From the NCBI GenBank assembly GCA_003194425.1, contig PQXB01000001.1, positions 580,444-612,443 on the forward strand: 32,000 bases of DNA. Direction: 5' to 3'. This stretch comes from Candidatus Methanophagaceae archaeon (GTDB taxonomy: Archaea > Halobacteriota > Syntropharchaeia > Alkanophagales > Methanospirareceae). Shown here in pieces: positions 3,984-23,871 of the stretch (position 1 is the first letter of the stretch; every line of letters starts with the position of its first letter). The notes beneath the pieces are model-generated. The model saw only the letters and a program-made list of their open reading frames with translations, made no database searches and was not told the DNA's origin. The translations under genes were made by a program, and so were the position numbers.

Positions 3984-4811
3984 ATGGGAAAAGTATTTTT
4001 AGTGGGTGCTGGACCGGGGGACCCCGAGTTGTTAAGTTTGAAGGCGAGTAGGCTCATAAAAGAGGCGGATGTGATTTTGACTGACAACTTGGTCTTTGGA
4101 GTGAAGAAGCAAATTCCAGAGGGCAAGAAAATCGTTGACGTCGGGAAGACCGCAGAGAGGCACAAACTCTCGCAGGACGAAATAAACAGGCTCTTGGTTG
4201 AACTCGCGGTCTCGGGGAAGTACGAGAAGGTAGTGCGGTTGAAGGGCGGAGACCCTTTCATTTTCGGCAGAGGCAGCGAAGAGGCGCTGTTTCTAAAAGA
4301 ACACGGCGTTGATTTTGAGGTGGTGCCGGGAATAAGTTCTGCAGTCGCGGTTCCCGCGGATTTCGGCATTCCGCTTACGCACCGCGGCGTCTCCTCCTCG
4401 GTTACCGTTGTTACGGGGCACGAGCAAGAGAAGGAAGAGAAAGAGGAAGGAGAAGAAGGGAAAGGAGAAGAAGGGAAAGGAGAAGGAGGCGGGCTTGACT
4501 GGGAGGCGGTTGCGAATTTGAGAGGCACGCTCGTAATTTTGATGGGGGCGGGCAACCTTGCCAGGAATGTTGGCAGGCTCTTGAAGCACGGAATGCCTGC
4601 CGAGACGCCTGTTGCGGTGCTTGAGCGAGGCTTCACTTCAGACGCCAGAATTGTAGTCGGCGAACTCGGAAACATCGTGAAATTGGCAAGGCAAGCGAGA
4701 GTGAAACCTCCTGCGGTGGTCGTAGTCGGAGAGGTGGTGAAGGTGAGGGAGAAATTACAAAAATCAAAATCACAAAATCTTGTCGGCTCGCAGAACCTCC
4801 AGGAACCGTAG
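3984..4811 (+). CDS. cobA: Uroporphyrinogen-III C-methyltransferase (SUMT)
   Basis: 275 aa. Matching segments: VFLVGAGPGDPELLSLKA, VVRLKGGDPFIFGRGSEE, FEVVPGISSAVAVPA..GIPLTHRG, SSVTVVTGHE, GTLVILMG. An insertion QEKEEKEEGEEGKGEEGKGEGGG is present. The 3' end overlaps the convergent gene by 42 nt. Confidence 0.9.
   Translation: MGKVFLVGAGPGDPELLSLKASRLIKEADVILTDNLVFGVKKQIPEGKKIVDVGKTAERHKLSQDEINRLLVELAVSGKYEKVVRLKGGDPFIFGRGSEEALFLKEHGVDFEVVPGISSAVAVPADFGIPLTHRGVSSSVTVVTGHEQEKEEKEEGEEGKGEEGKGEGGGLDWEAVANLRGTLVILMGAGNLARNVGRLLKHGMPAETPVAVLERGFTSDARIVVGELGNIVKLARQARVKPPAVVVVGEVVKVREKLQKSKSQNLVGSQNLQEP
4449..4489. repeat. 15-nt tandem repeat (ggagaagaagggaaa) x2 plus a partial third copy in cobA
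   Basis: Perfect copies at 4449-4463 and 4464-4478, and a partial copy at 4479-4489. They encode GEEGK GEEGK GEGG inside a purine-only tract (about 4425-4492). Confidence 0.9.
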
Positions 4812-9175: not shown

Positions 9176-10019
9176 GGCGAAGAAATACTTGGACCACCTT
9201 CTCGTCTCTGCGTTTTTAATCGCTGTTCTTCCGTATTCAGTTGATTCGTTCCTCGAGCGAAGGCGGCGGCGGAAGTACGAGGAAGAGTTCAGCGAGTTTC
9301 TCTTTGAGGTCTCGGAACTGCTCAGGAGCGGAATTGACCCGCTGAAGACGCTGGTAGAGATTTCAAAGTCAGCGGAGTCGGCAGAGTCGGCAGAGTCGGG
9401 GGGAGGTGAGGCGGCGGCGAAGAGAGGCGTCTTGAAGCTTCCGAAGGCGGAGTTGAAGGCGCTCGCACCGCTGATAAAAAACGCAGCGGGAAGCCTTACC
9501 GTAGGCAGGTCGTTCGAGAGCGTGATGAAGCGTGTGGCGAAGGAGACAAAGAGCAAGTTGATTGAGAGGTATGCCTTCTTGGTGGTGACGGCGACCTACA
9601 TCGGCGGAGAAGTGTCTCACCTCATTTTTACAACCTCGCGAGATATGAAGACGCATTTGAAAATACAGCGGGAAAAGGAGAGCGAGCTGCGGCAATACTC
9701 AATCATTTTTTATATTGCCCACGCGATCCTTGTTGCGATGCTGTTCCTGATAAGTGACCAGCTCCTGCCGCTCATTAGCGGTCTTGGAATTGGTGGCTCG
9801 ACCTGTTTGACTGGCCCGGTTGTGCTTGGCGGGGGTTTGGAGGGTCTTGAACTGGAGCGTTACTTCTACCATTTGGCGATGATTGACGCGTTGATTGTTG
9901 GGCTGGTGATTGGGAAAATCCTGCACGGGTCGGTCAAATACGGCCTGCTTCACTCCTCGGTCCTGATGATTGCGAGCTGGGTGGCCTGCGTGCTGCTAAT
10001 TCTTCCGAGCGGGTTTTGA
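9144..10019 (+). CDS. Type II secretion system F-domain membrane protein (FlaJ/TadC-like platform protein, single-domain)
   Basis: 291 aa. It has an N-terminal TM segment and a cytoplasmic helical domain (FSEFLFEVSELLRSGIDPLKTL...GRSFESVMKRVAKET...) as in T2SSF/FlaJ families, followed by 3-4 C-terminal TM segments. It lies directly downstream of the ATPase. The start is uncertain (GTG 9144 or 9159). Confidence 0.6.
   Translation: MGAENVGAEKWAKKYLDHLLVSAFLIAVLPYSVDSFLERRRRRKYEEEFSEFLFEVSELLRSGIDPLKTLVEISKSAESAESAESGGGEAAAKRGVLKLPKAELKALAPLIKNAAGSLTVGRSFESVMKRVAKETKSKLIERYAFLVVTATYIGGEVSHLIFTTSRDMKTHLKIQREKESELRQYSIIFYIAHAILVAMLFLISDQLLPLISGLGIGGSTCLTGPVVLGGGLEGLELERYFYHLAMIDALIVGLVIGKILHGSVKYGLLHSSVLMIASWVACVLLILPSGF
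9372..9398. repeat. 9-nt tandem repeat x3 (gc[g/a]gagtcg) in the FlaJ-like CDS
   Basis: Copies at 9372, 9381 and 9390. They encode AESAESAES. Confidence 0.9.
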
Positions 10020-10045
10020 GGTAAAAAACAACTACTAAACAACTA

Positions 10046-11626
10046 CTACCTAAGTCGCCACTGCCACCTCTTCCGCTTCTTCCCCACCAACTTGCTTATT
10101 TCGTCGCTCGTTACCATTCCGAGAACACGCCTGTCCGCGTCCACGACCGGCAGAGCGGAGATGTTGTGTCGCTCCAATTTCCGAATCACCAACTCCAGAC
10201 ACTGCTCCAAATCCGTGGTCACCACCTTCCGCGTCATTATTTCTGCCAAGCCCTCCTCTCGCTTCGCCACCGCGGTTGAAATGTCCCAGGCGGTCACGAT
10301 TCCCACGAGTTTTTCATTTGCCGAGACAACGGGAATGTGCGTAGTTTGAGACTCGGTAATCAATTTCGCAGCGTCTGCAATGCTCGCTCGCTCGCTTATC
10401 GTCGGCGTCTCCCTCAGCATCACATCCTTGACCAACGGCAGCTCCTCCGTCTGTTTCATCGGCTTGAAGACGCTCTCCGCAGGCGTCGGCAGCCGCTCAA
10501 CCGGTACCGACAGCAAGAACTCCCCTGCCTCAATTCTGCTTTTCAACTCCTCTGCAACCCGCTTCGCCATAAAAAAACTTGAAAGCGGCGAGGTCTTCAC
10601 CTCCTTTTCCGTGCCTCCCTTGCTCCCCTTGCTCCCCTTGCTCCCACGCCCAATTCCAATCTCAATCGCTCCCGACTTCAACTCCTCGTAACTAACCCTG
10701 CGCAGCACCGGCCGCTCCCGCCTGCCGACGCCAAAATCCACCACTTCTGTCTCGATTTCCGCGTCGCTCACTCCCGCCTTCCTCGCCACCTCCGCATTCA
10801 GCACAGGAATCGGAACTCCAAGCCCTACGTACAAACTCACACCGTAGCCGTAGAAAGTAGCACCTCTTAAGAATTCCGTGCTCATTTCCTTCAGGTTTCC
10901 AGAGACTGCCAAAGTACCAAAACGGTTAGCAGGGTCGTGCTGCGTCCCGGCTCCGACCACGTAGCCAGTAGCACCGCAGAGGAAAATCCGCGTGCCGACG
11001 CCAACGGTCTCAAAATCCGGGTCGTTGCAGAGCGGCGAGAGCGAACCCGCCCCGCAGTAGTTCGCATTTCGGTAGTTCGGGAGCAGCGTTCCCATATAAG
11101 TGTAGAGCGTTCGGTCAGTGGAGTTCGTCCCGACCTCGTGCCTCTGAAACGCGTTTCTCGGGTTCAACATCACCGCCTGATTCAGGTCTTCGAGTGTGAT
11201 TGTTGTTTCTACTTCTTTGCGAGGGTAGCAGTCCGTGCCGTAGCCGACCGCCTTCACCTCCACCGCCCTGCCCGCCACTAAATCCTCTACCACGCAGCCA
11301 CCGCCGTACTCCGCACCCCGCTCTTCAGAGAGCTGCGTCGCACCCAAGTAAGCGTCCACCGCTGCGACCCCAGTGTACGCTTCGACATCGTTGAGCCAGA
11401 CCCGCTGCATTTTTATCGGCGGGTCGGCGTGCCCGAAGTTGAGGAAGACGCCCGAGGAGCACATTGGACCGAAAGTTCCCGTAGTTACGACATCCACTTC
11501 CCTCGCCGCCTCTTCTGCGCCCAACTCGCGCACGATTTCGGTCATTCTGTCCGCGGTCACCACGCGAACACTGCCGTCCCCGATTTTTTCGTTTATCTCG
11601 CCGACGCTTTTGGTTTTTGCTCCCAT
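10046..11626 (-). CDS. COG1900 (DUF39) domain protein with C-terminal CBS pair; homocysteine-biosynthesis (aspartate-semialdehyde sulfurtransferase) type
   Basis: 526 aa. N-terminal KSVGEINEKI..G.VRVVTA...VDVVTTGTFGPMCSSGVFLNFGH..PPIKM..VWLN.V.AY.G.AAVDAYLGAT is typical of COG1900. The C-terminal tandem CBS motifs give the same architecture I recall for MJ0100/MA1821. An insertion GRGSKGSKGSKGG sits between the domains. Confidence 0.8.
   Translation of the reverse strand: MGAKTKSVGEINEKIGDGSVRVVTADRMTEIVRELGAEEAAREVDVVTTGTFGPMCSSGVFLNFGHADPPIKMQRVWLNDVEAYTGVAAVDAYLGATQLSEERGAEYGGGCVVEDLVAGRAVEVKAVGYGTDCYPRKEVETTITLEDLNQAVMLNPRNAFQRHEVGTNSTDRTLYTYMGTLLPNYRNANYCGAGSLSPLCNDPDFETVGVGTRIFLCGATGYVVGAGTQHDPANRFGTLAVSGNLKEMSTEFLRGATFYGYGVSLYVGLGVPIPVLNAEVARKAGVSDAEIETEVVDFGVGRRERPVLRRVSYEELKSGAIEIGIGRGSKGSKGSKGGTEKEVKTSPLSSFFMAKRVAEELKSRIEAGEFLLSVPVERLPTPAESVFKPMKQTEELPLVKDVMLRETPTISERASIADAAKLITESQTTHIPVVSANEKLVGIVTAWDISTAVAKREEGLAEIMTRKVVTTDLEQCLELVIRKLERHNISALPVVDADRRVLGMVTSDEISKLVGKKRKRWQWRLR
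10617..10643. repeat. 9-nt tandem repeat x3 (cccttgctc) in the COG1900-CBS gene
   Basis: Copies at 10617, 10626 and 10635. They encode GSKGSKGSKG. Confidence 0.95.
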
Positions 11627-11800
11627 CTTCTTTCTTTATTTTGTTGTGTTATCTTTTGTGATTATTGCTGATTATAAATTCTCCAGTGAAAAAGCCTTCT
11701 CAATTTTGGAGCTTCGGAAAAATTCTGCTCTGTTGAATCTGTTTTGAGGAGAGGGAGGAAACGGGAAAAAGAGTAAAAAGCAGATTACAAACACCCCTCG

Positions 11801-11834
11801 CCACCTTTCACAAAGCCCCACCTTTCACAAAGCC
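11801..11834. repeat. 17-nt perfect tandem duplication (ccacctttcacaaagcc x2) straddling the protease stop codon
   Basis: Copies at 11801-11817 and 11818-11834. The stop (11808-11810) lies in the distal copy. See findings. Confidence 0.95.
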
Positions 11835-14183
11835 AAGCAACTTCGCCGCATCTCCAACATCCACACGCCCGTTTTCGTTGAAGTCCGCTCTCGCTCTTAA
11901 ACCCCCGCCCCAGTCAACCGTTCCCACGACCATTCCCGCAACCAAATGCAGATCGCTCATCGTCGCAGAACCGTCGCCGTCTAGATCTCCTTTAACCCAC
12001 ACTGTCAGCAAAATTGCTGTTGCGCTCTTCGCCCCGTCGTTGTCGGTTACCGTTAAATTCACAAGGTACTGCCCGGCGGAAGAGTAACGGTGCGTTGCCC
12101 AGTTTTCTGTCGTGCTCGTCGTCGTGCCCTCGCCGTCGCCAAAATCCCACTCGTAACGCACGATAAAACCATCTCCGTCTGTTGAGTTAGAGCCGTCGAA
12201 GGTTACCGTTTCGTTCACCACCGCTGCGTTTAACGGCGAGTAGGTAAATGCTGCGACTGGCGGTCTGTTGGGAACGCACTTGCAGGCAGGGCTGCATTTG
12301 TAGCCAGCCCCCGCACCGCCGCCGCACGCGTCGCCCGGCTTTTTACCGTCGCACCCCAAATCCGCACCGCAGTAGGTCGTGTCGCAGACCCCTGTGTCTA
12401 AACAGACGCCTGCAAGGCATTTCTCCAGCGTGCTGTTTGCGGTGCAACCGCAGACGGTACCGTCGGGCTTGTTTACGGTCCGCGTTCTTCCGGTCTCTAC
12501 CCTTTTCGTCTCGGTGACTTTAAAGGAGCATTCTCCGGCGGTGCAGAAGAAGTCGCGGAATTCCTGCTCCTTCTCCTCCTTCTGCTCTGTCCGGCAGTCG
12601 TACTCTTTCGTCGTCACCCACTGAGTCTTGCCTGTGTCCTGCCAGCAGTCGTAGTCGCTGCAGTTCTCGACCAACTGGTCGTCCGTCCAACTCCCGTGGG
12701 CAGTGCATTTTCCTTCTTCGCAGTAGTAGTCGTGAAACCGCCTGTGCCTCCAAACCTCGTCCCCCTTGCACCCCTTGCAGTACGAGACCCAGTTTTCGTA
12801 GTAGTCCGTGTGCTTGTTTGTGGTGGTGTGCTTACACTTTCCGCCCTTACAGAAGTAGTCCCGCTCCTCGCACCCGCTTCCGTAGCGGTAGCAGCCGTCG
12901 TGGTCGTCGCAGTTCTCCAGACGGACTTTGAAATGGTCTGCAGGACCCCAGTTGCCCAAATTGTTCCTCGCCCTCACGTGGAAGAACCAAACGCCGTAAC
13001 TCAAGCCGGCGTAGGATTTGCTGTTTCCCGTTGTGTCGCAGGTTTTGTCTGGCGGTGCCGTTGAAGAGTGGTCGAGTGCGAGGCTGTAGCAAGAGATTCC
13101 CGAAGCCGAAGGGTCCGAGGGCGTCGTCCAAGAGAAACTTGGATTTCTGTTGCAGTACCACACACGCTCGTCTGGGTGTGTGGGTGAAGAAATGAGTGGT
13201 GCAGGAGGAGGAGTTGGAGACGGTGTTGGAGTAGGGGACGGCGTAGGCTCTGTCGTGTCGTCAACCACGAGTGCGTAGTCGTACTGCTCCAAATCGCCGT
13301 ACCTAACTTTGCCGTAACCTCCCTCCCCCCAACCCGTCCCCCAACTGTTCTTGACGACCCAGTAGCCCCCTGCGTCGTTGTAGCCGACGAGCACGACCGC
13401 GTGGTTCGGCTCCTTCCCCCAACCTTCGGACGACAGCACGGGTTCGAATATTCCACCGGTGTAGTAGAAGAACTCGTCAGGCGCGTGCAAGACAACGACC
13501 AGCGGACCGTAGGTTTCAAGCCCCGACTTGTAAGCAGCCGTCGTGCTTGGCGAAATCCAGAAATAATTCCCGACCGTCCACGCTCTGTCCTGCCAGTCCG
13601 AACAGGGCGTGCAGGAGCCGTTGGAGGCTCGGTACGGGAAACAGCCCTCGTCAGGAACGCCGTTGGTTGAGAGGTAAGCCAAAGCCAGTTCCGGATCTCC
13701 ACCACCACAATTTCCACACTGCACGCAGCAGTCCGAGACCAAGTGCTGCTCGGACAAGTCCTTGTCGATTTCGGGGCTGTCTCTTTCAATATTAATCACG
13801 GCTTCGAGAGCGCCCAAAACTGCAAACGCCCAGCAACTCCCGCAACTACCCTGCGACTTAACCGAAGTCAGCCAGTTCTCTCCGTCCTTGTTCCGCCAGT
13901 CGAAAGTTCCACGCGTGGCAGGGGAGGTGGCATTTGTGAGCGGGATTTTTGCTCGTGTTGTGTTGCCGAGCTTAAAACCACAGAGTGCCTTCTTCTCCTC
14001 CGCAGAGAGACCAGAGACCGATGTTTTGCCCGCGGTCCAGTTAGCTCCCTTCTCTTGAATCGCCCTTTGTATTTCTACCAATTCCGCAGCCTCTGCCGCC
14101 GCGGTGGCAGCAGCAGTAGCGACCGCTGCAAAACAGAGAAGAAGAACGCAGAGTCCTTCAGAGACGAGAGTTTTGTAGTTCAT
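11808..14183 (-). CDS. Secreted papain-family (C1) cysteine protease with Pro/Thr linker, Ig-like module, Cys-rich repeats, PKD domain and C-terminal dockerin
   Basis: The catalytic motifs are [20 protein letters not shown] and [15 protein letters not shown]. The linker is [19 protein letters not shown]. The PKD domain reads FTYSP...[21 protein letters not shown]...H.Y..AG.Y.V.LTVTD.DG. The dockerin-like pair is [14 protein letters not shown] and [15 protein letters not shown] prefer the ATG at 14183 ([22 protein letters not shown], a signal peptide), which overlaps the argG stop as ATGA; the ORF track extends to 14240. Confidence 0.85.
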
Positions 14184-15421
14184 TTGCTCTGCTGCTGCCT
14201 GGACTGAAACCCGTGAAACAATGAGAACCCCTCCGCCCACTTCTGCTCCTGCTTCACATCAAACGAAACCTCCTCCGAGTACAACGCGTTCGGCGACGCT
14301 CTGCCCACCACTCTCGCAACACCCTTGCACAGCCGCACCCAGACAGTGCCGTTCACTCGCTCCTGCGTCTTGTCCACAAAAGCGTTGAGCGACTCGTAGA
14401 GCGGGTCTTTCACCAGCCCCTTGTAGACCAACTCGCTCCACGCCCGCTCAACAGACGCTTTAAACCGCAGTTCGTTCCTCGTCAAAACAAGTTGCTCGAG
14501 GTCGCGGTGCGCGGTCAGCAAAATCGTAGCAGCAGGGTGCTCGTAGTTCTCGCGTGCCTTAAACCCGAGAACGCGGTCTTCGATTATGTCGGTTCTGCCG
14601 ACGCCGTGCCTGCCTCCTGTCTTGTTCAGCCACCGCAGCAGTGAAACGCCCCCTTTCTTCTGCCCGTTCAGCGAAACCGGAACGCCCTGCTCAAACCCGA
14701 TTTCAACAACCTCCGCCTCCGCAGGTGCGTTCTCCTGCGAGACCGTCCACTGAAAAATCTCTTCAGGCGGGAAGAAAGAAGGCTCTTCCAACTCGCTGCC
14801 CTCCACGCTCCTGCTCCAAATGTTCTCGTCCACGCTCCACCTCTTGCTCTCCTCCTCTACCTCTGCCTCTGCTTCTGCCTCTGCTTCTGCCTCTGTCTCT
14901 GCCTCTGCTTCTGCCTCTGTCTCTACGGTCTCAAAAAAAATGCCGTGCTCCGCCGCGTACTGCTTCTCTTCCACCCGCGTCAAACTCAGCTCCCGCACTG
15001 GTGCGACTAAGACCAAGTCAGCAGCGGCACGGAAGACGGCGTCGAACCTGAGTTGGTCGTTCCCCTTCCCGGTGCAGCCGTGAGCCACTGCCTCCGCTCC
15101 CACCTCTCTCGCAACCTCCACTACCTTCTCCGCAATCAGCGGTCTCGCGATCGCGGTCCCGAGCACGTAGCCCTCGTAGTCGCCGTTCGCTTTTATCAGC
15201 GGGAAAATGCAGTCCTGCACGAACTCCGCTTTCGCGTCCACCTCCCTGTAAGCGTCGCTCAGCTTCTCGCCCCTCGCCCTTGCCTCTTTCAAGTCCGCCT
15301 CGGGCTGCCCCACGTCCACAGTCACCGCAACCACCTCCTCGTAGCCGTAACGCTCCCTCAACAAAGGAATGCAGACCGAGGTGTCCAAACCACCCGAATA
15401 CGCAAGCACTACTTTTTTCAT
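14180..15421 (-). CDS. argG: Argininosuccinate synthase
   Basis: 413 aa. Matching segments: [47 protein letters not shown]. An insertion [25 protein letters not shown] is present. Confidence 0.95.
14861..14926. repeat. Hexanucleotide tandem array x11 ([c/t]tctg[c/t]) in argG
   Basis: Eleven consecutive hexamers from 14861 to 14926. They encode the (AE)n/(TE) insertion. Confidence 0.9.
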
Positions 15422-15569
15422 CGTTTACAACTTTCTACGAAAAAGACCTGTGCTAAGAAAGAATACTTTAAAAAAACACAAAAAATAAAAAAAGCAGGGT
15501 TAAATTAATAACCCCTCTACCTCCTCTTACCTCTACTCTTCTTCTCTTTTCTATTTCTTCTTCTCTTCT

Positions 15570-18500
15570 CTATTTTACCTCTACCTCCTCTACTTCCCCC
15601 AACTCTCTCTTTATCTTTTCCTCTATCCCAGCACCGAATGTTTCTGATATTATTTCCTCTATTTCTACTTCTCCTGCTTCTCCTGTTTCTCCTGCTTCTC
15701 CTGTTTCTCCTGCTTCTCCTGTTTCTCCTGTTTTTCCTGCTCCTACCTCTCCCGCCTCATAATTCCACTCTGCAGTGTCGCTGTCTACGACCTCGTGTGT
15801 CACTGGGTTGAGCAGTTCTACAGACCAAGTGGCAGTGAAATCGGTCGTCCCCCAGCCGTCTACAAGCATCCCAACTTGGATGGAATAGTCGGCACCCGCT
15901 GGTAAGAGCACAGGAAAAGGTTCTACGATTGTCGTCTGATTGCCTTCGCCAGATATTTCCAAGTACCACGCAACCAGCAGCAGTTGAGCAGTAGGCGTCG
16001 GATTTTCCAAGTCCAGCGTAATCTGCATCGTCTCGCCGGGCTGGTAGGTCGCCTTGTCGGTTGCGATTCCGACCGTCGGTTTCAGTTCCACCGAAACAGC
16101 CTCAAAAACGCTCTCCATCGAGAGATACAAAAACTTATCCTCCAAGACCTCCTTAAACTCCTTGAACGCCTTCTTCTCCTCGGGCGTCGCTGTTTTGGTC
16201 TTGCACTTCGTCCGCAGTTCAAAAAGCCGCTCTGGGAACACCGTTTCCTTCACCGCCACCTCTACCGCTCTGCCGACTGACTTCCGAACAAAAAGGTAGT
16301 CGTAGTTCTCTGCGCTGAGGTTCGCAGCGTCTGTCCCTGGAGGCAGTTCAATCTCCAAATCTTCCGCCGACTCCGAGCCCAGAATGTACTCAAAGGTCTC
16401 TTCGTGCCCGTCAGAAGGGTGCGCACAGACAATTTTCACATCGCCGCGCTGCGGAAAGCCGGGAAAGCCTTCCCACAAATCTTCTTCCGAGAACGCCCGC
16501 AGCGTTGACCTAAACGCAACTGCAACGCAGGGGCAGACGTGTCCGTGAGGCGTGCTCGCCTCTTCCAGCGAAATCTCAAGCAATTCTCCGCTCTCGCCCT
16601 CGTCTTCGTCCCCGCGGTCGTAAATCAGAACCGCAGGGTAGGAGAGTTCCTTCGCCGCCGTGACTTCCAGCCACTCCGTCGCTGTCGGGTGCGGTGTCAG
16701 CGCCCGCTGCCCTTTCTCGGGGTAGCCGTAGTTCAGACCCGCGAGCAGCATCTTCGGAATGTACCTCCCTGTGAAGAAGCCCTCGCTCGTCATTCGCGGA
16801 ACCACAATCGGATACGAACTCGCCGAAACCTCCTCCACGACCGTGCGAACCGTGAGGTCGGTCGGGTAGTCTTCGGGCTGGTAGACGAACGAGAACCGCA
16901 CATCCTCGATGTTTATGCCCTTACTGTGACGCAGAATCAATTTCACCTTCTCGGCGAGCGACTCTGAACTGTTCACCCAAGCCCTGAAGTATTTCTCTGC
17001 AAACTCGCCGTGACTGACAATTACGACCGTCTCGCTCTCAGGATTTTCGCACACGCCCGCTGCTCGGTCCGCTAAAATCTCTGCAACCGCCCAGTGGTCG
17101 TCAGTCGCGTCGGTAAGCACGATTTCCGCAGTGGTCTCGACTGGAACGAGCTCTTCTTCTTCGCCGCCGTGCCTTGCACTTGCACCCGCACCTAACGGTG
17201 TGTAAGAAACGAAGTACCGACCGTCTCTGGATTCAATAACTGACCGTTCCATTTCCACGCCTTCTACGAATGCCCGCGTTCTCGCCGCCAAAGCAGATTC
17301 AGGCAGTTCCTCCCGCAACCCGAGCACGTACTCAATCTCTTCAATGTGCCCGCTGTCCGAAGAAATGAACAACGGCACTGCGACAATCTTCGTTACGCCC
17401 TGCTCGTCGAGTTTCTCAACCGCCTCGTGAATGAGATTGTAGCCCTCCAGTTCGCCAACGAACTCCAAGTAGCCCACTTCTGTCGGGTAGCCCAGGCTCA
17501 TATTTTCCACCGTTTCTCTGATCGGCTTGCACCAGCTCTCGCTTGGACTCCCGTGTGCCAGCACTAAAATCCCAATTTGCTCGTAGTTCTCGCTCGGCTC
17601 AACCAGCGGGTAGCGGTCTGGGTTGTCACCGCCGCTGCCTGCGATTTCGTACGCCGTCTCGCCAATTCCGTCTCTGTTCGCGTCGCCGTCTTTGTCCGCG
17701 TCGCTTCCCGCGTAGTCGCTCCAGTAGTTGCCCAAGTAGTTCGTGTAGTCTCTGCCGTCGTAGGTGTAGTCGATTTCTACCAGCGAGTTCCAGTTGTTCG
17801 TCGAGCCATTCCCTACCGCGTTCTGCGTGTTGTTCACGAAGTCGTTGAGGTAGACGGTGCTGTCCGAAGTATTTAGGAGTTTTATTCCGCACTCGTAGTC
17901 AGAGACGACGTTTCGGGTAACCGTTGCAGTCACTTCGCCTGCCGGGTACAAGAAAGGATGGTGTGTATTATCTCCTATGATAATACCTGTACCCGAACCA
18001 CCAGTGAACTGATTGTTGTCTATGGTAGCTGTGATGTAGCCCTCACCGATATAGTAAGGCGGACTCCTTGCGTAGGTGCCGAGAACGATACCACTTGGCT
18101 CCACCCCAGAAAGCCCTGCTGCGTTCACCGCATTATCCTCGATAAAGACAGAACACTGACCCACTCCTTCCATCCCTGCAACGATCCAGAAACCTGCCTG
18201 GTTGTCGGTAAGTGTATTGCCCTGTGCCGAACCGTTTGATTCAAAAAATCCGATTGCGGAGGCATACCACCACTCGTCGGTATAAATGTGACCACTAATA
18301 GTATTGTCGTTCACAGTAGCTGTGGCACCCATTATCAAGATTCCACACTGGTCTGGAAAGTCTTTTGAACTCAAACCGATAACAGTGTTTTCAGTAACCA
18401 CAGCTTTGGGATTCGCAAAAATGCCTACACCCCAATTTGTATAGTCGTGGATATCGTTCTCGTTGATGGTTATATTAGAGTCAGAAAACACCGCTATGCC

Positions 18501-19568
18501 TGCACCATTGAGCCACACCTTTTCCTCCTCAATAAACTCTCCCCAGATGTTTTTGATCTCGTTCCCCTCGATAATTCCGTCGGCGTTGTAGTACACGATG
18601 CCATCTATATCAACGCTTGCGGAACTGCCATCGATAACAAAACCGGTGATGTCTACGCTGATGTTACCAGAACTTCCGTTTACCATTACTACCGGCGTGG
18701 CAGACATTGACATCATTTTAGTTTCAATGAAATACTCTTCAAGCACTTCTGCAGGTGCCCGAATTTCCGGTCTCTCGCTCTCCCTCTCGCCGCCTTCGCT
18801 TTCCGCAGCCCTCAAATCCAGACTCTTCGCAATGTACAACTGCTCCTCGTAAATCCCCTCGTGCACCACTACCGTGTCCCCCTCGTCGGCGTTGTCAATC
18901 GCGTCCTGAATCGAAATCCCTTCGACCACGTGCCACTCGTCAGTCCGCGTGAACGTGCCTTCCCACTCCGCCACTACGACGCCTGTTTCATTTCTCGCTA
19001 CCCAACTGTGCACCAACGTGTCCTCGCCCACAAAAATCTCAATCTCCTGGCAGGAGAGATTCTCGGTGATGCCAAACTCAGGAAGACCACCCTCTAATTC
19101 GTAGGAGGCACCGTAGCCGTTTGCCAGCAAATCGAAATACCTCGGCTCCTCGTCGCCCTCTGCAATTACAAGCTTCCCCTTATCCGCGTCCCACCACGTT
19201 TCGCCTGTCTCTGCCTCCTCCTCGCCTTCCATTATTGCAACAAAATCAGCAGCAGTCGGTCCAGTCAGAACAACCGTTCTCGTGCCGATGAAGGGAATTT
19301 CCTGCTCCCCCATCGTAAAACTGCCATTCATATCCCAGGCGCCTGAAAGACGCTCGAAAAGCACTTCAGGTGCAATCGCTCGCACTTCAGCTCGCACTTC
19401 AGGTGGCGGGTCGTCTACCTGCTCGCCCACTCCTTCTCCTCCTCTTTCTGCACCCACAATTCCCACAATTCCCAACGCAAGCACTCCTAACAACAAAATC
19501 CCCGTCGTCACTACTCCAATTCTTACTACTCCAATTCCTATCCCTCTTCTTTTTGGTTTTGCCTTCAT
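15570..19568 (-). CDS. Large membrane-anchored multidomain protein: N-terminal signal-anchor, right-handed beta-helix (NosD/pectin-lyase-like), two-lobed CbiX/SirB-like class II chelatase region, FmdE-like region, Ig-like domain, acidic repeat tail
   Basis: 1332 aa. The N-terminus is KPKRR plus a hydrophobic stretch (aa 1-40). Beta-helix turns span aa ~212-655 (ITINENDI, NTISGH, IEDNAV, IDNNQF, ...DYAGSDADKDGDANRDGIGETAYEI...DRYPL). The CbiX-like lobes are ILVLAHGSP...KIVAVPLFISSDSGHIEEI (aa ~665-750) and VVIVSHGE...YPIVVPRMTSEGFF (aa ~848-935). The FmdE-like motif is TPHGHVCPCVAVAFR (aa ~1006). No further TM segment is seen. Domain calls come from motif recognition only. Confidence 0.8.
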   Translation of the reverse strand: MKAKPKRRGIGIGVVRIGVVTTGILLLGVLALGIVGIVGAERGGEGVGEQVDDPPPEVRAEVRAIAPEVLFERLSGAWDMNGSFTMGEQEIPFIGTRTVVLTGPTAADFVAIMEGEEEAETGETWWDADKGKLVIAEGDEEPRYFDLLANGYGASYELEGGLPEFGITENLSCQEIEIFVGEDTLVHSWVARNETGVVVAEWEGTFTRTDEWHVVEGISIQDAIDNADEGDTVVVHEGIYEEQLYIAKSLDLRAAESEGGERESERPEIRAPAEVLEEYFIETKMMSMSATPVVMVNGSSGNISVDITGFVIDGSSASVDIDGIVYYNADGIIEGNEIKNIWGEFIEEEKVWLNGAGIAVFSDSNITINENDIHDYTNWGVGIFANPKAVVTENTVIGLSSKDFPDQCGILIMGATATVNDNTISGHIYTDEWWYASAIGFFESNGSAQGNTLTDNQAGFWIVAGMEGVGQCSVFIEDNAVNAAGLSGVEPSGIVLGTYARSPPYYIGEGYITATIDNNQFTGGSGTGIIIGDNTHHPFLYPAGEVTATVTRNVVSDYECGIKLLNTSDSTVYLNDFVNNTQNAVGNGSTNNWNSLVEIDYTYDGRDYTNYLGNYWSDYAGSDADKDGDANRDGIGETAYEIAGSGGDNPDRYPLVEPSENYEQIGILVLAHGSPSESWCKPIRETVENMSLGYPTEVGYLEFVGELEGYNLIHEAVEKLDEQGVTKIVAVPLFISSDSGHIEEIEYVLGLREELPESALAARTRAFVEGVEMERSVIESRDGRYFVSYTPLGAGASARHGGEEEELVPVETTAEIVLTDATDDHWAVAEILADRAAGVCENPESETVVIVSHGEFAEKYFRAWVNSSESLAEKVKLILRHSKGINIEDVRFSFVYQPEDYPTDLTVRTVVEEVSASSYPIVVPRMTSEGFFTGRYIPKMLLAGLNYGYPEKGQRALTPHPTATEWLEVTAAKELSYPAVLIYDRGDEDEGESGELLEISLEEASTPHGHVCPCVAVAFRSTLRAFSEEDLWEGFPGFPQRGDVKIVCAHPSDGHEETFEYILGSESAEDLEIELPPGTDAANLSAENYDYLFVRKSVGRAVEVAVKETVFPERLFELRTKCKTKTATPEEKKAFKEFKEVLEDKFLYLSMESVFEAVSVELKPTVGIATDKATYQPGETMQITLDLENPTPTAQLLLVAWYLEISGEGNQTTIVEPFPVLLPAGADYSIQVGMLVDGWGTTDFTATWSVELLNPVTHEVVDSDTAEWNYEAGEVGAGKTGETGEAGETGEAGETGEAGEVEIEEIISETFGAGIEEKIKRELGEVEEVEVK
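15669..15740. repeat. 9/18-nt tandem array (ttctcctg[c/t]) x8 in the 3' end of the large protein gene
   Basis: Eight 9-mers from 15669 to 15740. They encode GKTGETGEAGETGEAGETGEAGE. Confidence 0.9.
19379..19402. repeat. 12-nt tandem duplication (ctcgcacttcag x2) near the 5' end of the large protein gene
   Basis: Copies at 19379-19390 and 19391-19402, encoding EVRAEVRA. Nearby is a 9-nt x2 repeat cccacaatt (19453-19470, GIVGIVG) inside the membrane anchor. Confidence 0.9.
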
Positions 19569-19780
19569 TTTTCTTGTTTTCCCCTAATTTTTCACTTTCT
19601 TTCTGAATTTCAGAAGAAAAAGAGTGTTGTTAGGTGCATAAAAATTAACCCCTAAAAAGTCTTGGTTTCAAGAACCAAGCCTTAAGAATGTTAGGAAAGA
19701 AGAGACAAAACCGAAACAAGCTCTAAAATTTGTGCCGCACCTAAAGGGGTAAGGGCGCGATGAAAAAGTCTAACAAAGTT

Positions 19781-20242
19781 TTATTCGCCGTCTTCTTTCT
19801 GCTCTTCCAGCCCGTCCAAAACCAATACCTGCAGCGTGGGAAGAGCAGGCAGACGAGCGTCATTGGTCAGGAAGAAAGAAGCACCCTCGTGAATCGCCGT
19901 CGCCATTTGAATGGCATCTGGCGTCCGAATGTTATGTTCTGCACGCAACCGAGCAGCCTCTTCCGCGATCTCGTGTGAAAGTAGCAGAGTAGTGAGGTTC
20001 TCTGCATTGAGCAGGATTTCACGATATTCTTGAGCCAGCGCGGTGTCTCCGTATCTGAAGGGGTGAACCAGCACCTCCAGCAAAGTCACGACAGAAGTAA
20101 CCACCCTGAACTCGCCTCGATCCATCGCGACAAAGAATGGGCGAATTTTTTCCAAATAGGTCGGGTCTTCCTCAATAAAATAGATAAGAGGCGAGGTGTC
20201 CAAGCCCACTATCTTTCCTCGCAGATTTTCTATCCATCCCAC
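19781..20242 (-). CDS. vapC: PIN-domain ribonuclease toxin (VapC family)
   Basis: 153 aa. The four conserved acidic positions sit in the usual context: GLDTSPLIYF, TLLEVLV, TPDAIQMATA, FLTNDARL. The GTG start at 20242 overlaps the upstream antitoxin by 13 nt. Confidence 0.8.
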   Translation of the reverse strand: MGWIENLRGKIVGLDTSPLIYFIEEDPTYLEKIRPFFVAMDRGEFRVVTSVVTLLEVLVHPFRYGDTALAQEYREILLNAENLTTLLLSHEIAEEAARLRAEHNIRTPDAIQMATAIHEGASFFLTNDARLPALPTLQVLVLDGLEEQKEDGE

Positions 20243-20451
20243 GATGCACGCTCCCTGTCTATGAATTCTTGAGCGTCAAGACCCTGCCAGATTTTCTTAC
20301 CCAGCCCCTGCAACTCCAAAATGCTGCGACGAGATCGAGAAGCAGTCCGAGACCGAACTAAAGCCGCTAATTCTTCTAAGAGGCGAAACTGCTCAACAGG
20401 GTCGAGCTGCTGTATTCGAACCAGCAATTCTTTGTACTTCAGCGTTTGCAT
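20230..20451 (-). CDS. Putative type II antitoxin partner of VapC
   Basis: 73 aa, immediately upstream of the PIN gene and overlapping it. The sequence is helical and charged, with C-terminal ILELQGLGKKIWQGLDAQEFIDRERASW. The assignment is mainly by position. Confidence 0.6.
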   Translation of the reverse strand: MQTLKYKELLVRIQQLDPVEQFRLLEELAALVRSRTASRSRRSILELQGLGKKIWQGLDAQEFIDRERASWDG

Positions 20452-20763: not shown

Positions 20764-20791
20764 CTACTCGTACCGCTCTACTCGTACCGCA
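20764..20791. repeat. 14-nt tandem duplication (ctactcgtaccgc[t/a] x2) straddling the stop codon of permease 1
   Basis: Copies at 20764-20777 and 20778-20791. The copy inside the CDS contains the stop (20778-20780) and the last codons (AVRYE*). The second copy lies in the 3' flank. Confidence 0.9.
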
Positions 20792-21968
20792 CCGCTTCAA
20801 CGGGGCTCATTTTTGACGCCTTCCTCGCGGGGTAAAACCCAGAGAGAACGCCGACGACCAAAGCGACCGCCACGCCGGCGAGTAGAACCTCGGGCTTCAC
20901 AATCGCCGCAATTTCCACGCCAAATCTCGCACCGATTCCGAAACTTATTCCCTTCGCAGCGGCGACGCCGAGCAGACAGCCCGCCACCCCGCCTACCACG
21001 CTCACCAGCCCCGCCTCGGTCAGAAAGAGGAAGAGAATATTCCTGTTCTTCGCTCCGATCGCTTTCATTACGCCAATCTCGTGCGTCCGCTCCATCACAG
21101 CCATCAGCGTTGTGTTCATTATGCCCATCGAGGCGACGACGAGCGAGATCGAACCGATGGCGAGCAGGAAAACCTGAAGAATTCCTAAAACATCTTCTAA
21201 CGCTTTTATCGCACTGCCCATCGTCATTGCCGATGTAAAATCGTCCAATTTGTGGTTCTCGTCGATTCGCTCCTCTATTTCGTCCGCAATCCGCTCCGCG
21301 TCCTCAATGTCCCACAGCCGCACGAAGATTTTTGAAATATCTCGAGTCTGAAAAATATCTACCGCGTCCTGTTTCGTTACATATATTTCTGAATCAACAT
21401 TTGACCTGAACCCACCCTGCTCTTCCAGCACGCCAACGACCCTGAATTTACTGCCGTTTATCGTCAGCCGGTCGTTCTGCCCAATCTCGTCGTCAAAATA
21501 ATCCCACGCGACGCGGTGCCCGATTTCACAGGTTCTGTGGTCGTTCTCTTTTAACCACCGCCCCTCCTCCAATTTCACCACCTCGCCAAATACCGTGCTC
21601 ATTTCTCTCGGCTCTGTCCCCACGATATTTATCATAATTTTATCGCCGCGGTACTCCACCTCCTGCATCCCGCCAAGCATTCCCGCCGCCTCTTTCACCC
21701 CGCTTATCCGTTCTACATCTCTCAAATCACGCTCGTCAAAACTGCCAAGTTCAAGGTAGCCTGTCTCAAGACTCATCCTGCCCGGCATCACAATTATCAC
21801 ATCCGCCATCTCGCTCAACTGCCCGGTTATTGATTCCTGCATTCCGTAGCCGAGCGAGGTCAGCGCGATTACGGCGCCGATGCCGATCGCAATGCCGAGC
21901 CCCGTCAGTGCAGCACGAGCCTTCCGCTCTTTTAGATTCCGATAGACCAGCAGAAACGCGTCCTTCAT
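20778..21968 (-). CDS. ABC transporter permease, MacB/FtsX type (paralog 1)
   Basis: The layout is an N-terminal TM, a large extracytoplasmic MacB-PCD-like domain and a C-terminal FtsX 3-TM region (MAVMERTHEIGVMKAIGAK..., SGFYPARKASKMSPVEAVRYE). I prefer the ATG at 21968 (ggaggtttgaaaATG, MKDAFLLVYRNLKERK). The ORF-track extension to 22025 merely translates an intergenic repeat. Confidence 0.85.
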   Translation of the reverse strand: MKDAFLLVYRNLKERKARAALTGLGIAIGIGAVIALTSLGYGMQESITGQLSEMADVIIVMPGRMSLETGYLELGSFDERDLRDVERISGVKEAAGMLGGMQEVEYRGDKIMINIVGTEPREMSTVFGEVVKLEEGRWLKENDHRTCEIGHRVAWDYFDDEIGQNDRLTINGSKFRVVGVLEEQGGFRSNVDSEIYVTKQDAVDIFQTRDISKIFVRLWDIEDAERIADEIEERIDENHKLDDFTSAMTMGSAIKALEDVLGILQVFLLAIGSISLVVASMGIMNTTLMAVMERTHEIGVMKAIGAKNRNILFLFLTEAGLVSVVGGVAGCLLGVAAAKGISFGIGARFGVEIAAIVKPEVLLAGVAVALVVGVLSGFYPARKASKMSPVEAVRYE

Positions 21969-21986
21969 TTTCAAACCTCCCTTCTT

Positions 21987-22031
21987 CCCCGCTACCCCAC
22001 TCCCCGCTACCCCACTCCCCGTCACCCCACT
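21987..22031. repeat. Intergenic 15-nt tandem repeat x3 (ccccg[c/t][t/c]accccact) between the two permease genes
   Basis: Copies at 21987, 22002 and 22017. Confidence 0.9.
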
Positions 22032-22034
22032 ACC

Positions 22035-23222
22035 CTACCCGTACCGCACGGCTTCGACGGGGCTCATTTTTGACGCCTTCCTCGCGGGGTAGAAGCCCGA
22101 GAGAACTCCGACGACCAAAGCGACCGCCACGCCGGCGAGCAGAACCTCGGGCTTCACAACCGCTGCGATTTCTATTCCAAAGCCCGTGCCTGCTCCGATG
22201 CTTATGATCTTTGCGAGAACGACACCCAGCCCGCAGCCCGCTACACCGCCAACAAGACTAACCAAGCCGGATTCGAGCAGGAAAAGAGAGAGGACATCGT
22301 GGCTTTTTGCTCCGATCGCTTTCATCACGCCGATTTCGTGCGTCCGCTCCATCACAGCCATCAGCATCGTGTTCATTATTCCAATCGAGGCGACGACGAG
22401 CGAAATCGCCCCGATTCCGACGAGAACGCCCCGAATAATATTGAAAATATCCCCAATCTGCTCTATCATGCTGCCCATCGTCATTGCGTTCGCGAAATCG
22501 TCGAGCCCGTGGTTGTCGTTTATCACGTCCTCAATCTCCGCTGCAATCTCCTCCGCCTCCGCCACTTCGTAGACCCGAACCATTATGTAGCTAACATCGT
22601 CGGTCTTCAGCACCTCCTTTACGGCACGGTGCGTAAGAAAAATATAGGAGTCAATCTCCGCCGTCATCATTGTCCCCTTCCCAAACACCCCGACCACCAC
22701 GAATTTATCCCCGTTTATCAGCAATTTGTCGTTCACACGCACGACCTCGTCGAAGTAGTCGTTGGCGATGCGGTCTCCGATGACGCAGGCTTTGTAGTCG
22801 TTTTCCTTGAGCCACTTCCCCTCTTTCAGCCCCACGGACTCTAGATATATTTCGCCCAGCTCTTTGGTGTCGCCGCCGATGACATAAAGCGGCACTTTCT
22901 TGTTTCTGTATTCAACTTCCGCAGGGTCGTAGGTCATTGCTGCGACGGTTTTTATGCCGCCAATTCGGTTTATGTCTTTTACATCGCGGTCTGTGAAACT
23001 GCCCTTCTCAACATATTTCCCACCCCGTATTTCGCCGGGCAGCACCGCGATTATGTCCGCCATCTTCGTCAGTTCGCCTGTTATCGCCTGCTCCATTCCG
23101 AATCCGACGCTCATCAAAGCCACAATCGCAGCGATGCCAACTGCAATTCCCAGCACTGTAAGTAGCGAGCGAGCCTTCCGCTCCTTTATGCTCCTGAACG
23201 CCAGAAGAACTGCGTCTTTCAT
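22035..23222 (-). CDS. ABC transporter permease, MacB/FtsX type (paralog 2)
   Basis: 395 aa with the same architecture as paralog 1. The C-terminal 40 aa are nearly identical to paralog 1 (VKPEVLLAGVAVALVVGVLSGFYPARKASKMSPVEAVRY[GE]). Confidence 0.85.
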   Translation of the reverse strand: MKDAVLLAFRSIKERKARSLLTVLGIAVGIAAIVALMSVGFGMEQAITGELTKMADIIAVLPGEIRGGKYVEKGSFTDRDVKDINRIGGIKTVAAMTYDPAEVEYRNKKVPLYVIGGDTKELGEIYLESVGLKEGKWLKENDYKACVIGDRIANDYFDEVVRVNDKLLINGDKFVVVGVFGKGTMMTAEIDSYIFLTHRAVKEVLKTDDVSYIMVRVYEVAEAEEIAAEIEDVINDNHGLDDFANAMTMGSMIEQIGDIFNIIRGVLVGIGAISLVVASIGIMNTMLMAVMERTHEIGVMKAIGAKSHDVLSLFLLESGLVSLVGGVAGCGLGVVLAKIISIGAGTGFGIEIAAVVKPEVLLAGVAVALVVGVLSGFYPARKASKMSPVEAVRYG

Positions 23223-23798: not shown

Positions 23799-23871
23799 TG
23801 CGCCGGCCGGGATTTGAACCCGGGTTAGGGGCTTGGCAAGCCTCTGTGATACCAGGCTACACTACCGGCGC
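23799..23871 (-). tRNA. tRNA-Gly (anticodon GCC)
   Basis: The minus strand reads GCGCCGG-TA-GTGTAGCCTGGTATCAC-A-GAGGC-TTGCCAA-GCCCC-TAAC-CCGGG-TTCAAAT-CCCGG-CCGGCGC-A. The acceptor stem (7 bp) and T stem (5 bp) pair perfectly, and the T-loop is TTCAAAT. The anticodon loop is TT-GCC-AA. There is one A-C mismatch in the anticodon stem. No CCA is encoded. Confidence 0.85.

Follow-up and report, generated by a model that had tools for sequence, protein, structure and literature searches.

The gene analysed here lies in a 32,000-nucleotide (nt) stretch of DNA, called the window below, from contig PQXB01000001.1 (positions 580,444 to 612,443) of a Candidatus Methanophagaceae archaeon, a member of the ANME-1 (Methanophagales) group of anaerobic methanotrophic archaea. 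It is a continuous open reading frame (ORF) of 1332 amino acids (aa) at 15570-19568 on the minus strand, exactly the length, coordinates and strand given in an initial annotation made from the sequence. The product is very acidic, contains 14 N-x-S/T sequons and consists, in order, of a signal, an N-terminal domain, a NosD-type β-helix, a two-lobed chelatase region of the CbiX/SirB type, an FmdE-like domain, a probable β-sandwich and a (GETGEA)n tail. Coordinates are those of the window and all parts of the gene lie on its minus strand; homologous proteins and loci are referred to by P and L numbers.

The chelatase region is made up of a CbiX-type lobe 1 (aa ~660-850; 17019..17591), with His672 in an HGS motif and His741 in PLFISSDSGH, and a lobe 2 (aa ~851-974; 16647..17018), with His853 in SHGE, the motif VVPRMTSEG, and His960. 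In Pfam searches, the CbiX family (PF01903) is matched over aa 672-751 at 33.4 bits, above its curated threshold of 22, and reaches 80-95 bits in homologs with two modules, whereas the CbiK family (PF06180) is not matched. The NCBIfam models for CfbA/sirohydrochlorin nickelochelatase match weakly over aa 666-837 (NF033198, 33 bits; NF002090, 35.5 bits; cutoffs 120). A profile search of the Protein Data Bank (PDB) with an alignment of 21 copies of the CbiX-CbiX-FmdE unit (A1; mean column identity 68%) found Methanocaldococcus jannaschii CfbA (6m25, E = 5e-5). In this ungapped hidden Markov model alignment His672 aligns with CfbA His9 and His741 falls one residue off His75, the CfbA residues being counted along the aligned PDB sequence. 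In lobe 1 a β-hairpin of ~55 aa (aa ~755-812) is inserted at the point that in M. jannaschii CfbA is taken up by a His-rich loop; the insert is not His-rich in the ANME-1 proteins, and second copies of the unit are without the 50-70-aa insert. Lobe 2 lacks the second His of the dyad, as in the SirB/CbiX-L enzymes with one active site.

The fold was addressed with an AlphaFold2 model of aa 655-1165 built from 21 sequences, in which the predicted local distance difference test score (pLDDT) is 70-90 for the chelatase half and ~40-60 for the FmdE half. In a Foldseek search of the PDB aa ~665-975 match SirB (5zt9, E = 1.8e-6, template modelling (TM) score 0.66-0.71), with further matches to ferrochelatase (HemH, 1doz), periplasmic CbiK (2xvz), CbiK (1qgo), DR2241 and FetB (9b86). 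CfbA reaches a TM score of 0.74-0.77 per lobe. All of these matches have a probability of 1.00, the two-lobe ones (SirB, HemH, CbiK, FetB and CbiX) over ~325-385 columns, at 12-30% identity between the chelatase region and solved structures. The modelling thus shows a predicted two-lobed class II chelatase fold for aa ~665-975 with the metal-binding His dyad retained, and by profile, fold and dyad the protein belongs to the CbiX/SirB superfamily, as neither a CfbA nor a SirB equivalog. It shares with SirB, CbiX-L and CfbA (CbiX-S) the two α/β lobes, the HG(S) and P-L-F-x(4-5)-G-H motifs and the pairing of one lobe with a complete dyad and one degenerate lobe. In contrast to these cytoplasmic enzymes, it has an added signal and a large lobe-1 insert, lies outside any biosynthetic operon and scores far below the equivalog cutoffs.

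The FmdE-like domain (aa ~975-1161; 16086..16646) carries His1008-x3-Cys1012-Pro-Cys1014. Over aa 1008-1155 it matches FmdE (PF02663) in Pfam with a borderline score of 23.0 bits (cutoff 22.9); in the homologs P0002, P0004, P0005 and P0008 the family is matched at 41.9-49.2 bits over positions 2-132 of the 133 in the profile. PDB searches with the single FmdE-region sequence returned nothing, and a search with the family profile returned 2glz only, at a non-significant E = 0.39. Re-modelled alone from 48 diverse sequences (alignment A3), the domain reached a pLDDT of 95 and a predicted TM score of 0.91, and significant Foldseek matches of this model in the PDB are limited to 2glz, 2gvi and 3d00 (E 1e-5 to 1.5e-3), the next match being at E = 0.47; the TM scores of the matches are 0.46-0.67. 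It is the structure model that settles the assignment, sequence searches alone being insufficient: aa ~975-1160 are shown by modelling to have a predicted FmdE fold, with a variant motif. Both folds were therefore recovered by Foldseek over aa ~665-1150, where a failure to do so would, by its own terms, have refuted the initial annotation.

The variant motif can be described by comparison with the FmdE/FwdE-like proteins (PF02663; 2glz, 2gvi, 3d00). The H-G-x-x-C-P part aligns with HGHTCP near the N-terminus of the FmdE-like 2GLZ and is kept in the ANME-1 set. Relative to the canonical motif, which we take to be HGHxCPG with a downstream Cys/Asp, the second His is variable and Gly/Asp is replaced by Cys, giving C-x-C; the stretch aligned with C..DA.Q of 2glz reads G(H)..F.Y, and neither the C..D..Q region nor the C-terminal zinc ribbon of FmdE/FwdE is present. 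A resemblance of PHGHVCPC to HGH.CPG had been proposed in the initial annotation, of which the fold and H-G-x-x-C-P stand, but His1010 is not conserved and the constant feature is the C-x-C pair. The domain also differs from FmdE/FwdE in its predicted extracytoplasmic location, and there are no formylmethanofuran dehydrogenase genes in the window or in the homolog loci.

The putative metal ligands are conserved. In the 21 unit copies His672, His741, His825, His853, His960, His1008, Cys1012 and Cys1014 are invariant, as are P924, S928 and T933, and His1055, like His1010, is not conserved. The motifs on which the initial annotation had based its chelatase assignment are invariant or nearly so in these copies (HG(S) and PLFISS.SGH in lobe 1, HG and VVP..SEG in lobe 2), and together with the CbiX score and the SirB, CbiK and CfbA fold matches they uphold it. 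The catalytic His residues, whose conservation it had recommended checking, are also widely kept outside this set: in the wider family His672 is found in 145/151 sequences, His741 in 113/151 and His853 in 118/122. In the FmdE domain the corresponding figures are 79/84 for each of Cys1012 and Cys1014 and 51/84 for His1008.

A protein search of 5.8 billion sequences gave 22 close homologs with 48-61% identity, and the named ones among them come from ANME-1 or 'Methanomicrobia' bins. A HMMER search with A1 of 1.84 billion representatives gave 1101 matches at E<=1e-3, 122 of them at E<=1e-30. Among the best 150 of the 1101, which we re-annotated with sub-profiles, ~55 cluster representatives have chelatase lobes followed by FmdE, some of them in tandem. 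The carriers are ANME-1, Methanosarcinales and Bacillota, and nearly all with a complete N-terminus have a signal-like hydrophobic segment. They include the S-layer-homology (SLH) protein WP_276623843.1 of Syntrophomonas wolfei, SLH proteins of other Bacillota and proteins from metagenome-assembled genomes (MAGs) of Methanosarcinales, and some module proteins end in a PEF/PGF-CTERM-like tail or a dockerin. Secreted FmdE-like proteins that stand alone are also found, as are secreted two-lobe CbiX proteins without partner domains. One of the latter, the bacterial P0089 (L126, 2904-3905), carries at the lobe-1 insertion point a His/Met-rich stretch (MDHSQMNHGMMDHS...HMNDSHNSMGHMNM) reminiscent of an ion-capture loop, and has Ile/Val where the second His of the dyad would be.

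Segment-wise BLAST comparison of the close homologs reveals a modular build: a signal, an N-terminal domain (of the type found in our protein, ZinT or repeats), either a single β-helix or a pair, the CbiX-CbiX-FmdE unit in one or two copies and a variable C-terminus. On these architectures, the CbiX-CbiX-FmdE unit is a mobile module that travels independently of the β-helix. One ortholog (P0020) is split in locus L006 into 10001-12946, with the β-helix and the start of lobe 1, and 12957-15413, with the remainder including CbiX and FmdE, by what would be either a frameshift, a pseudogene or an assembly error.

At its N-terminus the protein has a signal (aa 1-43; 19440..19568) consisting of KPKRR and a hydrophobic stretch of ~30 aa. 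A Kyte-Doolittle scan of the whole protein finds a single hydrophobic segment, aa 9-43, preceded by KPKRR, and no transmembrane-like window past aa 60, where the hydropathy maximum is 1.31. This agrees with the single N-terminal hydrophobic segment of the initial annotation, but the membrane anchoring that it had added is not established: the signal is kept in more than 20 homologs, and in most homologs it ends at a site resembling that of cleavable Sec signals (..ASA or ..VTA before E), so that it may be either a cleavable Sec signal or a signal-anchor. A solute-binding protein of the PBP_like_2 family encoded elsewhere in the window (1144-2256, minus strand) has a PGF-CTERM archaeal sorting signal; archaeosortase-type anchoring is thus used by the organism, and our protein has no such signal.

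A conserved N-terminal domain (aa ~45-215; 18924..19436), absent from the domain list of the initial annotation, is 58-71% identical to the same region of 10 homologs in BLAST comparisons. It has no Pfam match in our protein or the 10 homologs and no PDB profile match; a divergent ZinT or a lipocalin is a conceivable identity for it. In the paralogs P0005, P0008 and P0016 its place is taken by ZinT, a periplasmic zinc-recruitment domain. It is followed by a right-handed parallel β-helix of NosD type (aa ~216-655; 17604..18923) with a D-rich cap at its end (DADKDGDANRDG...DRYPL), for which the Pfam scores (NosD 61.5 bits, Beta_helix 50.4 bits) agree with the NosD-like repeats noted initially. 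The protein shares this periplasmic-type helix with NosD of the NosDFY copper delivery system, but its score with TIGR04247 (NosD) is 61.3 bits against a cutoff of 300, which does not reach the level of the family, and there are no nosF, nosY or nosZ genes in the window. The β-helix is therefore generically of NosD type and not a NosD orthologue. It is present twice in P0001 and P0019, and it probably serves as a stalk or spacer. In surface proteins associated with ANME such non-canonical NosD-like helices are frequent, and they have been discussed there as adhesion domains (PMC13452462).

The chelatase and FmdE modules would be displayed outside the cell, as had been proposed in the initial annotation. 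This placement is suggested by the lone N-terminal signal with positive charges before it, by the presence of β-helix and ZinT domains, which are exclusively extracytoplasmic types, and by the signals and surface anchors (SLH, dockerin, PEF/PGF-CTERM-like tails) of relatives in other lineages; a cytoplasmic location, which would have contradicted the initial annotation, is not indicated.

Further information on function comes from the region upstream of the gene. By comparing the upstream regions of homolog loci we found a cassette of ~75 nt (19625..19701, minus strand) that ends ~60 nt before the ATG. It consists of CCTAAC-N6-(T)AGG, then TTnGGnTT-N8-AAnCCnAA, and then TTTAGGG-N15-CCTAAC, in which the N15 contains a TATA-like box. 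The TTTAGGG-N15-CCTAAC core has one match in the 32-kb window, at 19629-19656 (minus strand), where 0 are expected. In the homolog loci the spacing of the core is invariant at 28 nt and 45 more nucleotides are conserved upstream of it. The cassette precedes the orthologous gene, or a short ORF just before it, in L002, L003, L004/5 and L006, and the core also precedes feoA (twice) and genes for a Peripla_BP_2 protein, a helix-turn-helix protein, DUF2325, an AAA protein and a flavoprotein. Copies are located in L002 at 868, 3200, 5586, 9804, 15032 and 20359, in L006 at 1619, 6376 and 8516, in L001 at 4894, in L003 at 6060 and in L004 at 9577, with further copies in L007-L124.

The genes around these homologs are more informative than those in the window. 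L002 contains in a row ZinT, a DtxR-family repressor at 9209-9685, the homolog of our gene, four feoA, feoB, MJ0565 and an FmdE-like gene; the same DtxR-family repressor and DUF2325 lie a few kb upstream in L001 and L004/5, and L006 has feoB and a Peripla_BP_2 protein. The FmdE-like gene of L002 (19611-20228, plus strand), and another in L099 (1395-2012, minus strand), encodes a 205-aa protein of the same C-x-C subfamily right after feoB/MJ0565; both lack a signal-like N-terminus, and the L002 protein is 31-40% identical to the FmdE domain of the module. Neighbouring cfb, sir or cbi genes are absent from the window and from six homolog loci.

Scanning one genome per GTDB species with a 40-nt cassette pattern, we found at least 118 stretches with the cassette, hosted nearly all by Methanophagales, ANME-2, other Methanosarcinales, Methanothrix, Syntrophoarchaeum and Methanolliviera. 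The following counts are among the matches listed. A first downstream ORF (at least 70 aa, starting within 300 nt) was found for 112 of 142 cassette copies, and 65 of these 112 begin no more than 50 nt from the end of the cassette. FeoA is the most frequent first ORF (28), followed by the β-helix/CbiX/FmdE family (15), DUF2325 (13), Peripla_BP_2 (7), DUF3793 (7), AAA (6) and β-helix/CARDB (6), the rest being singletons and pairs. Of 124 cassette loci, 29 contain a DtxR-like gene, which is 64-97% identical between loci and usually ends ~25 nt before the cassette; the window has none. In 117 loci (756 kb in total) fetched solely for containing the cassette, FmdE-like C-x-C ORFs occur in 25 and chelatase-like ORFs in 20, so that the cassette regulon takes in the FmdE-like subfamily in addition to the fusion.

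In the consensus of 148 distinct copies, the positions conserved without being forced by the search include the TATA-like TaTTT.tat between the arms and the upstream inverted repeat TTnGGnTT...AAnCCnAA. This repeat has almost no covariation, its stem positions being near invariant and one central pair not kept, so that nothing favours a structured hairpin in RNA or DNA above a palindrome bound by protein. At Rfam gathering thresholds the upstream region has no match to any family, which excludes a known RNA element there. We read the cassette as a putative promoter whose TATA box is bracketed by operator half-sites. Its TTAGG/CCTAA arms presumably resemble the DtxR/IdeR iron box, a resemblance that we use as a lead and not as a test, and the cassette is likely to be the iron regulon operator of these archaea. 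A genetic link of the exported chelatase to iron or haem uptake is provided by the cassette common to feoA and Peripla_BP_2 and by the DtxR/ZinT/Feo cluster of L002.

Two further occurrences were seen. Upstream of P0038, a relative of Methanosarcinales type without the strict cassette, a looser TTAGG-N14-CCTAA inverted repeat at ~7930-7960 of L127 may be a diverged operator. The only match outside Halobacteriota among 80 records listed is a copy at 4722-4761 (minus strand) of L021, contig DYFG01000096.1 of a Nitrosotalea sp. MAG, which is accompanied by FeoB-like and FmdE-like ORFs; its thaumarchaeal binning could reflect mis-binning or horizontal transfer.

The reading that we favour, tentatively and with slightly less than even confidence, is that the gene encodes a secreted or surface-held, DtxR-controlled iron-acquisition protein of an ANME-1 archaeon and not an enzyme of cofactor biosynthesis. 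When Fe(II) is plentiful, a DtxR-type repressor would sit on the TTAGG/CCTAA inverted repeats flanking the TATA box and keep the gene off; under iron limitation the gene would be derepressed and the protein made and exported. With the β-helix as a stalk that holds the chelatase-FmdE module off the membrane, the His sites of the chelatase and the Cys pair of FmdE could capture iron in its ferrous form from the reducing, sulfidic surroundings, whether as free Fe2+ or out of dissolved FeS species, and this iron would be handed over to the FeoB transporter. The signal-less FmdE-like C-x-C proteins encoded after feoB may be the cytoplasmic counterpart of the exported domain. That the modules serve capture or handling rather than biosynthesis had been suggested in the initial annotation, and is strengthened by the cassette common to feoA, Peripla_BP_2 and DtxR-adjacent genes.

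Several observations weigh against this reading. In the window no DtxR, feo or transporter gene adjoins our gene, and the contexts of the distant relatives P0057 (Syntrophomonas), P0089 and P0038 contain no clear metal or iron signal and no strict cassette. The connection of the repressor with the cassette is one of gene adjacency and half-site resemblance, not of binding; the scan pattern was derived from ANME-1 copies, and the tally of downstream genes is a sample from the matches listed. The DtxR family includes Mn sensors in addition to iron sensors. Finally, the native ligands of the chelatase fold are tetrapyrroles, and both characterized extracytoplasmic homologs bind haem or porphyrin.

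The last point leads to the best of the alternatives, a surface protein that handles haem or metalloporphyrin. Here the cleft would bind an iron tetrapyrrole, haem or sirohaem-like, from the environment or from partner cells, acting as a hemophore for an ABC importer or in metal removal or exchange, and the gene would still belong to an iron regulon. Such a role has been put forward or demonstrated for periplasmic CbiK of Desulfovibrio and for FetB/IhtB of Porphyromonas gingivalis. Extracellular multihaem cytochromes are abundant in ANME consortia, the cassette also precedes genes of Peripla_BP_2, the class of proteins that bind haem, siderophores and B12, and the complete His dyad of a working chelatase is kept. 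Periplasmic CbiK (2xvz/2xvx) and FetB (9b86) are also among the top fold matches. FetB, a CbiK homolog on the cell surface that binds haem and porphyrin, has a measured chelatase activity by which it inserts Co and Mn, but it showed no insertion of Fe or Ni and no reverse chelatase activity with haemin (PMC13065792). Moreover, the main target of the cassette among the matches listed is feoA/feoB, a route for the ferrous ion and not for haem; the module is also present in Methanothrix and Syntrophomonas, for which haem piracy is not known and no haem source is obvious; secreted stand-alone CbiX relatives such as P0089 bear His/Met-rich loops of the ion-capture type; and the role of the fused FmdE domain is left unexplained. 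Because of the feo-dominated regulon, the hosts without an obvious haem source and the His/Met loops of the relatives, we rate haem handling below iron acquisition, as unlikely though by no means negligible.

CbiK-P of Desulfovibrio vulgaris (2xvx/2xvz) and FetB/IhtB of Porphyromonas gingivalis (9b86) are nevertheless the closest known precedents for an exported class II chelatase fold (Foldseek E 1.6e-5 to 6.4e-5, TM score 0.62-0.65), and like our protein they are tied to iron or haem acquisition and not to a biosynthetic pathway. They differ from it in being bacterial single-domain proteins of CbiK type (PF06180), whereas the archaeal protein is of CbiX type (PF01903), with its dyad in lobe 1. 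In addition, the studied module always has an FmdE-like domain after it, and is associated with a β-helix mount and a DtxR-associated cassette shared with feoAB. The exported chelatase of ANME-1 is an analogous recruitment outside the CbiK-P/FetB lineage.

Scavenging of another divalent metal through the same His and Cys sites is improbable in comparison. The candidates would be Ni, Co or Zn, of which these archaea require large amounts for F430, corrinoids and Zn enzymes, and the sequence relatives closest to lobe 1 are the CfbA nickel-chelatases, in which the site of the lobe-1 insert is occupied by the His-rich loop of the M. jannaschii protein. Crystals of SirB and CfbA contain Ni2+ and Co2+ at the dyad, according to their PDB titles, and ZinT domains are present both in paralogs and in a neighbouring gene of L002. 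However, no Nik, CbiMNQO or Znu transporter is found among the cassette targets listed, both the feo targets and the type of regulator speak for iron, and the ANME-1 insert is not His-rich. The likeness to ZinT and ZnuA is one of function, namely the recruitment of a scarce divalent metal outside the cytoplasm, through His residues, for delivery to a dedicated importer: ZinT is fused to the same module in the paralogs, but our protein has no ZinT domain, and the chelatase-fold module shows no sequence homology to ZnuA/TroA.

A structural or adhesive surface protein, in which the chelatase and FmdE folds are mere scaffolds or interaction modules with no role for metal, is less probable again. 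For NosD-like β-helix proteins of ANME systems a part in adhesion has been proposed (PMC13452462), our protein has a β-sandwich and a repeat tail, and neighbouring genes encode surface proteins (a PKD/dockerin protease and a PKD/DUF11 protein). Such a role would not account for the strict conservation of the exact catalytic and ligand residues across distant lineages, for the co-regulation with feo or for the movement of the module independently of the β-helix. An ordinary cytoplasmic chelatase for sirohaem, B12 or F430, mis-annotated through fusion or a wrong start, as database names of homologs ('sirohydrochlorin ferrochelatase', 'CbiX/SirB N-terminal domain-containing protein') might suggest, is effectively refuted by the architecture, that is, by the continuous 1332-aa ORF, the signal conserved in more than 20 homologs and the fusion to extracytoplasmic domain types, in addition to the lack of tetrapyrrole-pathway neighbours and NCBIfam CfbA scores of 33-35 against a cutoff of 120.

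The iron-acquisition reading can be extended to a broader proposal, which we consider doubtful as a whole but still a substantial possibility. The CbiX-CbiX-FmdE module would be the extracellular arm of an unrecognized Fe(II) pathway of strict anaerobes, comprising ANME, Methanosarcinales, Methanothrix and syntrophic Bacillota, in which the chelatase fold would have taken on a new function, either that of an Fe(II) receptor or that of extracting iron from FeS(aq), mineral or iron tetrapyrrole. On either side of the membrane, the FmdE C-x-C domains would serve as iron chaperones around FeoB, and the cassette would mark a DtxR iron regulon across several archaeal orders.

Iron acquisition by methanogens and methane-oxidizing archaea in sulfidic sediments, where iron is locked as FeS and pyrite, is an acknowledged gap. 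DtxR/FeoAB has been proposed as the Fe(II) sensing and uptake system of methanogens (PMC8516115), FeoAB and DtxR are the only iron candidates named in the Boyd-group papers cited here, and how methanogens capture FeS-bound iron is still an open question (PMC8516115; PMC8351635); iron-sulfide precipitates also occur in ANME consortia (PMC5947290). The present analysis provides a testable extracellular component and a cis-element that marks its potential partners, namely feoAB, Peripla_BP_2, DUF2325, DUF3793, the AAA protein and β-helix/CARDB. The exported chelatase homologs, so far two bacterial CbiK proteins, are joined by a broad CbiX-based family from archaea and Bacillota. The FmdE fold, a functional orphan, is linked to metal uptake, which, if true, would be the first concrete FmdE function. 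As homologs are present in Methanothrix-type and Syntrophomonas genomes, experiments are possible before ANME-1 is available in pure culture. Our literature search returned no paper describing a CbiX-FmdE fusion, its extracytoplasmic distribution in archaea and Bacillota, or the cassette, and nothing relevant on FmdE with FeoB or on ANME with CbiX, chelatase or FmdE, consistent with the initial view that the domain combination is uncharacterized. The fusion, its extracytoplasmic spread and the cassette thus appear to be new, and exported chelatase homologs as such were already known from CbiK-P and FetB.

The C-terminal parts of the protein are less conserved, its last 167 aa being unmatched among the 22 close homologs in BLAST comparisons. 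A probable β-sandwich, called Ig-like in the initial annotation (aa ~1166-1275; 15744..16073), has no Pfam or profile match, and only P0027 shares it, with a similar domain after the module. The acidic, low-complexity (GETGEA)4 tail (15573..15743) is encoded by the 18-nt tandem repeat at 15669-15739 (3.9 copies, 96% matches), as expected from the tail described initially; its sole Pfam match, to a collagen-like family, is sub-threshold. A hairpin followed by a T-run at 15487..15515 (minus strand), ~55 nt past the stop codon, was picked up as a terminator-like site. It is possibly the end of the transcript, in which case the gene would be monocistronic, but terminator-like sites are no commoner in our scan than in shuffled sequence.

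The neighbours of the gene in the window are unrelated to it and comprise argG, a C1 protease, an enzyme of homocysteine synthesis, a PIN toxin and two MacB/FtsX permeases, in addition to the PKD/DUF11 surface protein. Immediately upstream of the cassette, at 19781-20451 (minus strand), are the gene for the PIN-domain toxin (153 aa) and an overlapping upstream ORF of 73 aa, a VapBC-like arrangement; a PIN gene is also found near the homolog in L003. The tandem MacB_PCD/FtsX permease genes follow at 20778-23222 (minus strand), with no ATPase gene among the ORFs scanned nearby. We dropped this pair as a NosFY-like partner of the β-helix, given the PIN/antitoxin pair and the separate promoter cassette in between. 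Neither a tRNA gene at 23799-23871 (minus strand) nor a gene for a TP_methylase (tetrapyrrole/diphthine methylase family) at 3984-4811 (plus strand), ~11 kb away, has an evident link to our gene. On the other side, at 11808-14240 (minus strand), an 810-aa papain-family (C1) cysteine protease with PKD and type I dockerin domains is predicted to be secreted or at the surface; if its ORF is taken to begin at the first start codon, ~60 nt of it are shared with the 3' end of argG (14180-15421, minus strand). The argG gene itself has an in-frame 6-nt tandem repeat of 11.8 copies at 14854-14924, which encodes an acidic (E/T-A)n insert between the two Pfam domains that is unusual for an argininosuccinate synthase.

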